DNA of 29,834 nucleotides from Cirrosporium novae-zelandiae. Its lineage: Eukaryota. The stretch spans positions 310,001 to 339,834 of the forward strand of contig JAPETS010000034.1 in the NCBI GenBank assembly GCA_026023565.1, in the 5' to 3' direction. This document shows, in pieces, positions 6,746 through 9,698 of this stretch; within the stretch, counting starts at the first letter, position 1, and every line of letters begins with the position of its first letter. A model generated the notes under the pieces. The model saw only the letters and a program-made list of their open reading frames with translations. It was not told where the DNA came from and did not search any database. A program made the position numbers and the translations under genes.

Positions 6746-6793
<48 letters not shown>
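6746..6793. repeat. (TAA)16 microsatellite
   Basis: Perfect trinucleotide run. Confidence 0.97.
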
Positions 6794-6795
<2 letters not shown>

Positions 6796-7460
6796 GCTAG
6801 CCATCATCAGCCGCTGGGAGTTGTTGTGGCATGGGCTATGGGCTATGGGCTATGGGCTTTTTGCTTTGGAGGGGGTCCATGTCGTCCATGACCTCGTACT
6901 TTGGAAACCATTTCACTTATTTCGACTACTTTTGGCTACTTTGACTCTTTGACTCTTTTTTGCCTTGACCTTGACTACTTTCAACCATCCATGGTCCTTG
7001 TCTTTAGCGAATGATCCGGCCTCTCTCCGGGAAGTTTGATTTAAGCAACTGTGCGCCCACGGACGGACTCGAACAATTTGATCTCATCGCAAATAACCCA
7101 TCTATTTGATATCTACCGATTTGAGTACTATAACTGGTCTTGCCACCAACCTCCTCTAAATATCCCCCCTCCCCCAAAGCTCCTGCACCTGACATCCCAC
7201 TTTCTCATTGTTGCGAGTCTTCATATAATCAAAAACACAACCACAAACCACAAACCACAAACCACAACCCCCCCCCCCTCAGCCTTACTCACCGCATTCG
7301 CATAAACGACACACTATCCATCTACCACTATCTAGAACACTTATCGTCCGAGTGAATCTATTGCGACAACGTCAGCGATTCCACACACGGACTCCACCCA
7401 TTCACTCTCTCTGTACTGATTACGGTCTTCGAAGGCCTTTGATCTGATTAAACCGCCATC

Positions 7461-7748
7461 CTGGATTCACTATCAGACACTCCCCCCCCTCTTCAATATT
7501 CTCCCGTCCTAAGTGATCGGGATCGTTCTTCGACGAGAGAAACCACTCCAATCGGAACCCCAACTGGAGAATTTGGCCTCAAACGTCCCGAAAAAGAGCG
7601 AGATTTATTATATCCTTGGTGTCAGAAGCCGAACAGTACGCCTTGTAAGCAACTCGGCGATTTTGTCGACGCCACTCTTCTCGATTCAGACACAGATCTT
7701 GGGAATCCTCTATTTCCTTTATTCGACGACGAATCGGGAGACCATATA
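7461..7748 (+). CDS. SFP1: Putative CUG-initiated 96-aa N-terminal extension of Sfp1
   Basis: In frame with the ATG at 7749 and stop-free back to the TAA at 7449-7451. The CTG at 7461 has context ACCGCCATC-CTG-G (A at -3, G at +4). No ATG in any frame between 7014 and 7748. Confidence 0.6.
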
Positions 7749-9698
7749 ATGGCCACCACAGCATCCCCCATCGATATTGCCCCCTCACGCAACTCGCCAC
7801 ATGGCCCTCAGACTTCCAATCTCACTGCTGCACTCCACCAAATGGGCAATGGAGATATGCTGCTGAGCTCCAACTGGAACAGTGAGCGAGGACTCACCCG
7901 CCCAGATTCCTTTAGCAATTATGGTTTCAGCAGTCAGACCAATGGCGCAAAACCAATAAATGTCAAAGGCTCAGGAGCCAAGGAACGACGAGAGAGCCTT
8001 GCTGGAAGTCTGATTGCAGGAATGAGCTGGGGCGGCATATCGGTTGGAAGCTTTATTCGAGATGAGTATGTATTCCCATGCAAATAAATACCCCATCCAA
8101 GAATCGGTTGATAAGGGCCGGATACCATCGACCCGCATGGCTTTATCTTTATTTTCTAGAATCATTCCACGCCAGTTGAGCCCAAAGGCTAATTTTGCCA
8201 CAGTATGATGATGACTGGAACTTCACCATTCACAATGCAAACACCCTCCTTTCATTCCTCGTCATATCTGCCGAAACTTGAAGCAAATTTTATGAGAGAT
8301 TTCAGCTGCTGCAACATGAAACTTGCTTCGCTGCACGAACTTCTGGCGCATTACGAGACGGCACACGCAAACCAAAATTTTACGTCAACAACAATGCAGA
8401 AGGCGATGCAACCTAATTTTATACCCGATAACAAAACATCCCTCTCTAATGGAGCCTCCAAAAAGATCCAGGAACAAACACAGCAGAATCATACTATTAA
8501 CAACCAAAATGGCCAGTCAATGTACGGCATGGATGCTGCAATGACACAATCGACCCCCCAGCAATCCCAGGCACAACTTAATGTCAACCGTCGACCTCGT
8601 TCAGAAGATATGGATGACATCGACGACATGGAGATGGATGACGTTGAAGACGATGAAATGACCCCTCCTCCAAATCCCCTCCAGAACTCGCAGTCTTCAC
8701 AGCAAACTTCATTTGGGAGAACCCAAGTACCACCTTTGAATATGGGAGGCTTGAATATGATGCAGTCCCAAGGAATGCGAAACTCACAGCCTTCCACCCC
8801 AGTCACTGGCCGGCCTTCACAACTTTTCCAGAACAATCCTACCGTATCATCTGTGAACACCCCTACATTGACAACAGCCAATCCCCTGGCAAGACAGACT
8901 CGTGGCACCCCAGACTCATCTGCGCCCGGGACACCCGGGGAGCTCGATCAGGATGTATTTGGCCTCGGTCCCAATATGAACAGCGCCTACAGCATGCTTT
9001 TGAACGGGCAAAATTCAGGATACGGCTTCCCTAATATGAATTTCATGGGTAACGGCTATGATATGATTGACTACTGCATCGATGATCCTGCTAAGCATCT
9101 TCTGGGTGAAAATGGTGGCCCTCACGGTTCCCAGAATCAAGTTCACACCAGACTGGGAGGAAATCAGCACTATGGGGCCGATAGCGAGATCGCCCGAAAT
9201 ATTCGCCAACGACAATTGCAAGCCGGTTTGCCGGATACTAGCGTAGGGCAAATGCCGGGAGATGAGCCAAAGCCGTTCCGATGCCCTGTTGTAGGGTGCG
9301 AAAAGGCTTACAAGAATCAAAATGGGCTCAAGTACCACAAATTGGTAAGCCCATTTGCAAGACACATTAATTTGTATTAGCTAATAGTGAAATAGCATGG
9401 CCATAACAGTCAACGCTTGAACGACAACGGCGACGGCACATACTCGATTGTCGATCCAGAAACATCGATGCCATACCCCGGAACGATGGGCATGGAAAAG
9501 GAGAAGCCTTACAAATGCGACCATTGCGGGAAACGATACAAAAATCTTAACGGTCTCAAATACCACAAAACACATTCACCTCCTTGCAATCCGGAAGCCG
9601 GGATAACTGCCCTAAGCCCAGCAGCGCTACAGCAGCAGGGTGCCAACGTCAATGTCGCTGGCGCTGGATTAACAAATCTTGGCGATCCTATGATATGA
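7749..9698 (+). CDS. SFP1: Split C2H2 zinc-finger transcription factor Sfp1 (586 aa from the ATG). Exons 7749-8065, 8204-9344, 9396-9698
   Basis: Motifs GMSWGGISVGSFIRDD, YLPKLEANFMRDFSCC..LHELLAHYE, KPFRCPVVGCEKAYKNQNGLKYHKLHGH and EKPYKCDHCGKRYKNLNGLKYH. Introns 8066-8203 (GTATGT/GCTAAT/CAG) and 9345-9395 (GTAAGC/GCTAAT/TAG) restore the frame. Confidence 0.95.

Follow-up and report, generated by a model that had tools for sequence, protein, structure and literature searches.

A conserved, probably CUG-initiated N-terminal extension of the ribosome-biogenesis regulator Sfp1 in Cirrosporium novae-zelandiae and related fungi

Two isoforms of c-Myc, the CUG-initiated p67 and the AUG-initiated p64, are made from one messenger RNA (mRNA). 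Yeast Sfp1, frequently likened to Myc in function, is the chief transcriptional switch controlling the production of ribosomes, and its TORC1-controlled activation of ribosomal-protein and ribosome-biogenesis genes is known for yeast only. Here, we examine the SFP1 orthologue of Cirrosporium novae-zelandiae, a fungus of the class Xylobotryomycetes (NCBI taxonomy), on a stretch of 29,834 nucleotides (nt) of contig JAPETS010000034.1 (hereafter the window, with positions counted from its first letter), in which the open reading frame (ORF) of the gene continues upstream of the annotated AUG to a putative CUG start. Extensions of this kind have been described for other fungal regulators. Passages of the study of Neurospora crassa cpc-1, the orthologue of Gcn4, describe a conserved N-terminal extension initiated from near-cognate codons (Ivanov et al., 2017, mBio, PMC5487733), and the same passages cite the bZIP factor IDI-4 of Podospora anserina, for which a conserved CUG start has been proposed. 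Furthermore, leaky scanning past AUGs in weak context gives rise to dual isoforms in fungi, as set out in parts of Wallace et al. (2020, Nucleic Acids Research (NAR), PMC7049704).

The original prediction for this DNA held that SFP1 carries a hidden CUG-initiated N-terminal extension, and this core claim is supported by the conservation of the extension as protein, by a CTG at the proposed start in 39/39 sequences that lack an ATG there and by a codon periodicity that sets in at that CTG. We conclude from these comparisons that translation of the extension most likely starts at CUG 7461, and CUG initiation combined with leaky scanning offers a very plausible account of the locus as a whole. 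Isoforms of 682 and 586 amino acids (aa) would probably arise by leaky scanning. From the sequences described below, we infer the presence of CUG 7461 in the mRNA, its use as a start and the existence of both isoforms. The start region contains the following features, all on the forward strand:

7014..7460, +, putative 5' leader without an ATG in any frame
7449..7451, +, TAA stop in frame with and three codons 5' of CTG 7461, which closes the frame to an upstream AUG within the exon
7453..7460, +, initiation context from -8 to -1, CCGCCATC, which fits the family consensus CCGYnA at -8, -7, -6, -5 and -3
7458..7460, +, ATC, a near-cognate codon at the place where AUG-class orthologues carry ATG, overlooked in the original prediction
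7461..7463, +, proposed start of the long isoform, a CUG that the initiator tRNA would decode as Met
7461..7748, +, 96-codon N-terminal extension, predicted to be disordered, with conserved short motifs
7749..7751, +, annotated AUG (Met100 of the alignment), putative start of the short isoform, in the strong context catataATGg

Direct inspection of the sequence bore out the description from which the prediction had started. The frame is open for 99 codons from the TAA at 7449-7451 to the ATG at 7749, the CTG at 7461 has A at -3 and G at +4 (gccatcCTGg), no ATG occurs in any frame between those at 7011 and 7749 (scan of 7012-7748), and the 96-residue peptide encoded by the extension reads as originally written. 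The remaining two frames are closed by stops at 7510 and 7747 and at 7514 and 7646, respectively. The gap between the two ATGs measures 738 nt and exceeds every other ATG-free stretch of the 29.8-kb window, on both strands; the next in length are 524 and 463 nt. When 7014-7748 was resampled with a first-order Markov model, the mean was 8.0 ATGs, and only 0.04% of 5000 resamples contained none. The orthologous loci are also poor in ATGs upstream of the start site, with 32 in 12,426 nt (equal-length stretches of 273-474 nt). In addition, there is no AG dinucleotide between the TAA at 7449-7451 and CTG 7461, and hence no splice acceptor is possible there.

The extension is conserved as protein, with approximately 45-55% identity to the N-termini of Sfp1 orthologues, which agrees with its proposed coding function. 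A protein search was conducted with the 205-aa translation of 7452-8066. Among the 120 longer proteins listed, 69 cover at least 71% of this query at approximately 40-47% identity and therefore include the extension, and the other 51, among them P0001, the database protein of the C. novae-zelandiae gene itself, match only from the annotated Met (window 7749) onward. An exhaustive HMMER search returned 242 proteins at E<=1e-3, including many short metagenomic exon-1 ORFs with matches from query residues 4-9. When searched alone, the 96-aa extension matches 75/263 proteins at E<=1e-3 (nominal database size 2e12 residues), with P0121 as the best match (54% identity). Nucleotide differences follow the same pattern: in 47 within-cluster locus pairs, the extension differs by 0.129/0.098/0.342 per codon position, and the 120 nt upstream of the CTG differ by 0.339/0.335/0.337 per position in the same pairs. 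Coding periodicity thus begins at the CTG and is absent upstream of it. Taken together, we regard it as almost certain from the sequence that the extension is coding.

Invariant or nearly invariant alignment positions of the extension form the motifs TPPPLxxSP, S-T-x-E-T-T-P-x-x-T-P and FPLF, and all invariant motif positions (P11, P12, L14, S17, P33, T36, P37 and F91) are kept in the window. The N-terminal 202 aa matched no Pfam family. AlphaFold2, run with a 32-row alignment, gave a mean predicted local distance difference test (pLDDT) score of 50.4 and an extension without secondary structure; the sole element predicted is a five-residue helix (residues 126-130) downstream of Met100. Because this model is structureless and no Pfam family was matched, the extension looks like a disordered region with linear motifs. 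Its S/T-P sites suggest proline-directed phosphorylation, and a role as a phospho-regulated or activation module is a speculative possibility; the acidic-aromatic patch pointed out in the original prediction is likewise only a candidate transactivation motif.

A conserved near-cognate codon in a Kozak-like context was recovered when the upstream regions of SFP1 were aligned across orthologous loci. A metagenome scan with alignment A1 identified 80 loci, of which 69 contain the start region; one (L053) is truncated by the contig end and 10 carry no extension of the TPPPL type. Removal of identical copies left 51 distinct sequences, or 52 with the window. These comprise 39 sequences including the window that have no ATG at the start site (class A) and 13 that have one (class B). 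Class A forms 12 clusters at 70% aa identity, plus the pair L075 and L077, which stands outside the clustering. At the position of window 7461, all class A sequences carry CTG (37/37, and 2/2 further distinct loci). As controls, CTG makes up 126/513 of the other Leu codons of the same ORFs and 9/37 of those that encode the invariant PPPL Leu. All 39 class A sequences likewise have A at -3 and G at +4. Among 37 of them, A occupies -3 in 37, G occupies -6 in 36, C occupies -7 in 34, and -8 is divided between C (26) and T (11). Positions -9 to -7 read NCC; the first base of this codon varies and the later ones are fixed, which indicates a constraint on nucleotides and not on the amino acid. Upstream of -12 the information content is no higher than background, and downstream it shows a three-base periodicity. 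Furthermore, no in-frame ATG lies between the nearest upstream in-frame stop and the CTG in any of the 39 class A sequences, with the stop located 3 to 143 codons from the CTG and four loci running off the contig. The two sequences outside the clustering, L075:2434-3330 and L077:1976-2959, have the divergent start T-A-T-L-A-S in place of V-K-L-D-S and retain CCG at -8 to -6 as well as the CTG with its A at -3 and G at +4; they contain zero ATGs over the 348-360 nt down to the conserved Met.

In class B, the ATG sits one codon upstream of the old Leu position, which is occupied by TTG, CTC, TTT, TTC or ATC and is therefore no longer constrained. The context of this ATG is weak, with T at -3 in 11 sequences and C in 2, and with T, C or A but never G at +4 (13/13). 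The codon directly before the CTG is ATC in the window only; the other 38 class A sequences have AAG, AAA or ACC.

The annotated starts of orthologous proteins show the same two arrangements. Eurotiomycete orthologues (Onygenales, Eurotiales and Chaetothyriales) have their annotated Met within one codon of window CTG 7461, as in M-L-D-S-T-A-S...PPLHYSP aligned with I-L-D-S-L-S-D-T-PPPLQYSP of the window. Among 263 proteins, 44 have an N-terminal Met at most 16 residues from the PPPL anchor, and 45 carry [K/T/N]-L-[D/E] at the site without a Met, preceded by upstream parts that are mutually unrelated and of very different lengths. Other arrangements occur in 28/263, some with clearly forced upstream exons (P0030 and P0035), and the PPPL anchor is absent in 145/263. 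Named members of the Met-less type belong to the Lecanoromycetes, Coniocybomycetes and Dothideomycetes. Public models such as P0010, P0017-P0019, P0030, P0035, P0045 and P0051 carry spliced-in exons or between 20 and >200 additional N-terminal residues that are unrelated from model to model, and these additions to CUG-type models appear to be artefacts of gene prediction that demands an ATG. The Cladonia borealis model P0112 and P0001 are instead shortened to the downstream Met. Within the K-L-D-S group, P0021, P0126 and P0147 begin with M-D-S-R-D-T-PPPL, M-T-L-D-S or M-K-L-D-S, so that, as far as proteins can tell, scattered lineages have an ATG either at the site or one to two codons ahead of it.

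Joined as exons, 7749-8065 / 8204-9344 / 9396-9698 (+) reproduce the 586-aa P0001 exactly. A start at 7461 adds 96 residues to give 682 aa, and both lengths put forward for the CUG and AUG forms thus agree with the sequence. AUG-only annotation was also said to miss the extension, and indeed the P0001 model begins at the downstream Met and stops at 586 aa. Downstream of the extension, the gene is organized as follows:

7749..8065, +, remainder of exon 1 of the SFP1 orthologue (model as in P0001)
8066..8203, +, intron 1 (GTATGT...CCACAG)
8204..9344, +, exon 2
9345..9395, +, intron 2 (GTAAGC...AAATAG), which interrupts the first candidate C2H2 finger
9396..9698, +, exon 3, containing the second candidate C2H2 finger together with the stop codon

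P0001 shares 99% identity with the query over the AUG-initiated part and derives from a metagenome-assembled genome (MAG), in which it is named 'Transcriptional regulator of ribosomal biogenesis proteins [Cirrosporium novae-zelandiae]'. Orthologues are named 'zinc-coordinating transcription factor SFP1' or 'split zinc finger protein' in their sources, and the identity of the gene as Sfp1 rests on these names. Close to the C-terminus, the translation shows two candidate C2H2 fingers, C-x4-C-x12-H-x3-H, which intron 2 divides, and C-x2-C-x12-H-x3-H; the Pfam scores of zf-C2H2 (22 bits) and zf-C2H2_aberr (17 bits) are both under the respective cut-offs of 25.2 and 27.

Independent Logan contigs of the probable source run are identical to the window over 7000-8100, with zero differences at a word depth of ~348, and the absence of an ATG is therefore not an assembly slip. 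This DNA run was the sole holder of the locus in a search of sequencing runs, which listed no RNA run. The DNA upstream of the gene is of low complexity in places, including an (AAT)n microsatellite at 6746-6795, a GGGCTAT tandem at 6830-6858 and a (CCACAAA)n run followed by a C-run at 7238-7279. At 7238-7268 the Logan contigs are broken and very short contigs are stacked, with a word depth of ~1350-1400 compared with 270-348, and this repeat is therefore present elsewhere in the sample.

Leaky scanning between the two starts is supported by a nearly ATG-free spacer, by a strong and conserved downstream Met and by the weak context of the upstream ATGs in the lineages that have them. The Met at window 7749 is nearly invariant in an otherwise poorly conserved stretch of the alignment. 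It could be placed in 46 distinct loci, with a purine at -3 in 39/46 and G at +4 in 44/46. The spacer contains zero ATGs in any frame in 39/46 loci, and that of the window has 0 in 288 nt. In total, the spacers hold 7 ATGs in 13,653 nt, none of them in frame, compared with 224 in the 13,578 nt that immediately follow the Met. A further four loci, all from one cluster and unplaced in this count, had one ATG each in 273 nt in an earlier pass. The upstream start is suboptimal throughout, being a CUG in 39 loci and an AUG with a pyrimidine at -3 in 13/13.

Some lineages deviate from the paired arrangement. The Penicillium/Aspergillus-like loci L064:1493-1849 and L065:2959-3339 have an in-frame stop 4 (L064) or 13 (L065) codons before the conserved Met, and the extension was not detected in either by tblastn with 15 extension peptides (best E-values 0.19 and 2.4). 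They resemble many short annotated forms (560-575 aa) of Penicillium and Aspergillus. The downstream Met is therefore the only start in some lineages, and some Eurotiales seem to have lost the extension. Another ATG-initiated N-terminus (M-R-S-V-S-D-W-F...), unrelated to the TPPPL extension, precedes the conserved PIDI/SNLT part in L073:2878-3426, L074 and L071.

On a maximum-likelihood tree of 52 exon-1 proteins, the AUG state requires two changes, one in a 12-locus group and one in L070, which is nested among CUG loci; the starred branches alone are compatible with a single origin of the AUG. The ATG of L070 (L070:1441-2211, AUG-class among CUG-class loci) has the weak context ctgctcATGt and appears to be an independent gain. 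The window branches beside the 12-locus AUG group, and its placement is unsure, given support of only 90/80 and a long branch (0.91 changes per column). We speculate that ATC-CTG of the window represents an intermediate or reverted state between AAG-CTG and ATG-CTN. Since both AUG groups have weak contexts, the pattern suggests selection for inefficient upstream initiation, which would act on efficiency rather than on codon identity.

An AUG in an upstream exon spliced into the frame would make the extension part of an ordinary AUG-initiated protein. Its candidate parts in the window (ATG 7011, donor GTGCGC at 7051 and acceptor TATCAG ending at 7476) are frame-compatible, a CTGAT branch-like motif lies ~30 nt before the acceptor, and exons of this sort are predicted for some orthologues, e.g. 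P0030 and P0035. However, with no AG from the TAA to the CTG, the acceptor must be downstream of the CTG, which makes CTG-GAT-TCA and its -8 to -1 context intronic, even though the consensus is invariant across the 12 clusters. The donor is poor, and the intron would span 426 nt. Moreover, no upstream exon is conserved among the clusters, and the upstream parts of annotated orthologues bear no relation to one another. Searches with tblastx and blastn of up to 1.5 kb upstream of 25 loci from 11 clusters revealed no segment conserved between clusters, with the exception of clusters 1 and 6. These share a stretch 510-1500 nt upstream, strongest in minus-strand frames, which is probably part of a neighbouring gene. 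We consider an upstream AUG exon very unlikely. The AAG/CTG boundary was also considered as a general splice acceptor and ruled out, as 4 distinct loci have AAA and the window ATC. Sequencing or assembly error masking a true ATG is a negligible possibility: the ATC is one base from ATG and the record is a metagenome-assembled genome, but the Logan assembly is identical at every base over the interval given above with no variant reported, and the ATG-less state is also found in 38 other distinct loci.

Several observations weigh against CUG initiation at 7461 or limit the reach of the comparison. Ahead of the CTG, the residues V-K are conserved, most of the variation there falling on third codon positions, which, taken alone, could be read as coding. 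Many of the metagenome loci are closely related, so that the number of independent lineages is nearer 12 than 39, and the codon evidence comes from these loci, with named species represented by proteins only. RNAalifold on 14 sequences found no conserved hairpin after the CUG (-0.23 kcal/mol, 3 trivial pairs), and the fold of the window itself has a z-score of 0.22. One out-of-frame ATG interrupts the spacer in 7/46 loci. At -2 (T) and -1 (C), the window context deviates from the consensus of the family, and an AUC stands directly 5' of the CUG as a possible start. The deviating context would fit the extension being an untranslated relic in this species, with transcription starting below 7461 or the CUG being ignored and only the 586-aa protein being made; L064, L065 and the short annotated Penicillium forms do use the downstream Met without an extension. 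Contrastingly, the 99 codons of the window are still open while the other two frames are closed, identity to distant orthologues is 45-55% with every invariant motif position retained, the CTG, -3 A, +4 G and the GCC-type context at -6 to -8 are all kept, and no ATG has arisen in 738 nt, although the long branch would have given ample time for decay. We therefore regard a relic as unlikely. Initiation at AUC 7458, instead of or together with CUG 7461, is highly unlikely. This codon lies exactly where AUG-class orthologues have their ATG (M-L-D-S compared with I-L-D-S) and has G at -3, but it occurs in the window only, CTG being the sole near-cognate codon common to the other 38 class A loci, and it has C at +4. 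AUC is also a much weaker start than CUG.

Under CUG initiation with leaky scanning, the SFP1 mRNA would contain two in-frame starts, of which scanning ribosomes would meet CUG 7461 first. A fraction of them would initiate there with initiator Met-tRNAi, in the context CCGYnA..CUG G, and produce the 682-aa protein, and the remaining ribosomes would scan 288 AUG-free nt and initiate at the strong-context AUG 7749 to produce the 586-aa protein. The same paired-start layout is kept in several classes of Pezizomycotina, with a good-context CUG in most lineages. In Eurotiomycete-like lineages and at least one other, the CUG has been replaced by a poor-context AUG (pyrimidine at -3, no G at +4). If the two isoforms exist, current Sfp1 annotations are wrong, being either shortened, like the 586-aa model, or lengthened by spurious upstream exons, like many models from lichen MAGs. 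A regulator of ribosome synthesis would then itself be subject to start-codon selection, which would provide a route from translation status to ribosome biogenesis. Tentatively, the paired starts might form an ancient, conserved sensor, in which the ratio of long to short Sfp1 reports start-codon stringency and initiation capacity (balance of eIF1/eIF5 and status of eIF2); we consider this doubtful on present analysis. If it were true, the extension would alter the activity, localisation or stability of Sfp1, translation status would feed back on the transcription of ribosome-biogenesis genes, and the system would be a fungal parallel to the c-Myc CUG/AUG isoforms. The case is notable for its breadth over several classes of filamentous and lichen-forming Pezizomycotina, for the swap of CUG and AUG together with their contexts and for the gene concerned, and the repeated exchange of a good-context CUG for a poor-context AUG would make an unusually clean natural experiment.

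As in c-Myc, a long CUG form and a short AUG form are proposed here for a regulator of growth and ribosome biogenesis, although the proteins are unrelated. The long Sfp1 forms of Eurotiomycetes provide a closer comparison: Histoplasma P0004 (695 aa) and Aspergillus thermomutatus P0023 (672 aa) share the extension from their first residues and start at an AUG one codon upstream of the CUG position. Like cpc-1 as described in passages of PMC5487733, SFP1 encodes a Pezizomycotina transcription factor with a conserved in-frame extension 5' of the annotated AUG that was found by comparative analysis. The two differ in that the cpc-1 leader described there carries a pair of uORFs (upstream open reading frames), whereas the Sfp1 leader is AUG-free. 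Several near-cognate codons seem to serve cpc-1, judging from a passage of the article that names 'NCC8', in contrast to the single invariant CUG of Sfp1, and the exchange of this CUG for a weak-context AUG in related lineages is a further difference from cpc-1 as presented in these passages. IDI-4 is said in the same source to start at CUG only, whereas the CUG of Sfp1 is paired with a conserved downstream AUG. The AUG-class Sfp1 loci, with their pyrimidine at -3, fit the scheme of Wallace et al. as laid out in parts of PMC7049704; the pairing of CUG with AUG, in a nuclear regulator, departs from it. A term search of the available text of PMC5487733 found no mention of Sfp1, zinc finger or C2H2, and a literature search, with supplements and subscription journals outside its scope, found no paper joining Sfp1 with non-AUG initiation. 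Conserved near-cognate-initiated extensions with leaky scanning are already known as a kind, to which Sfp1 would add a new case.

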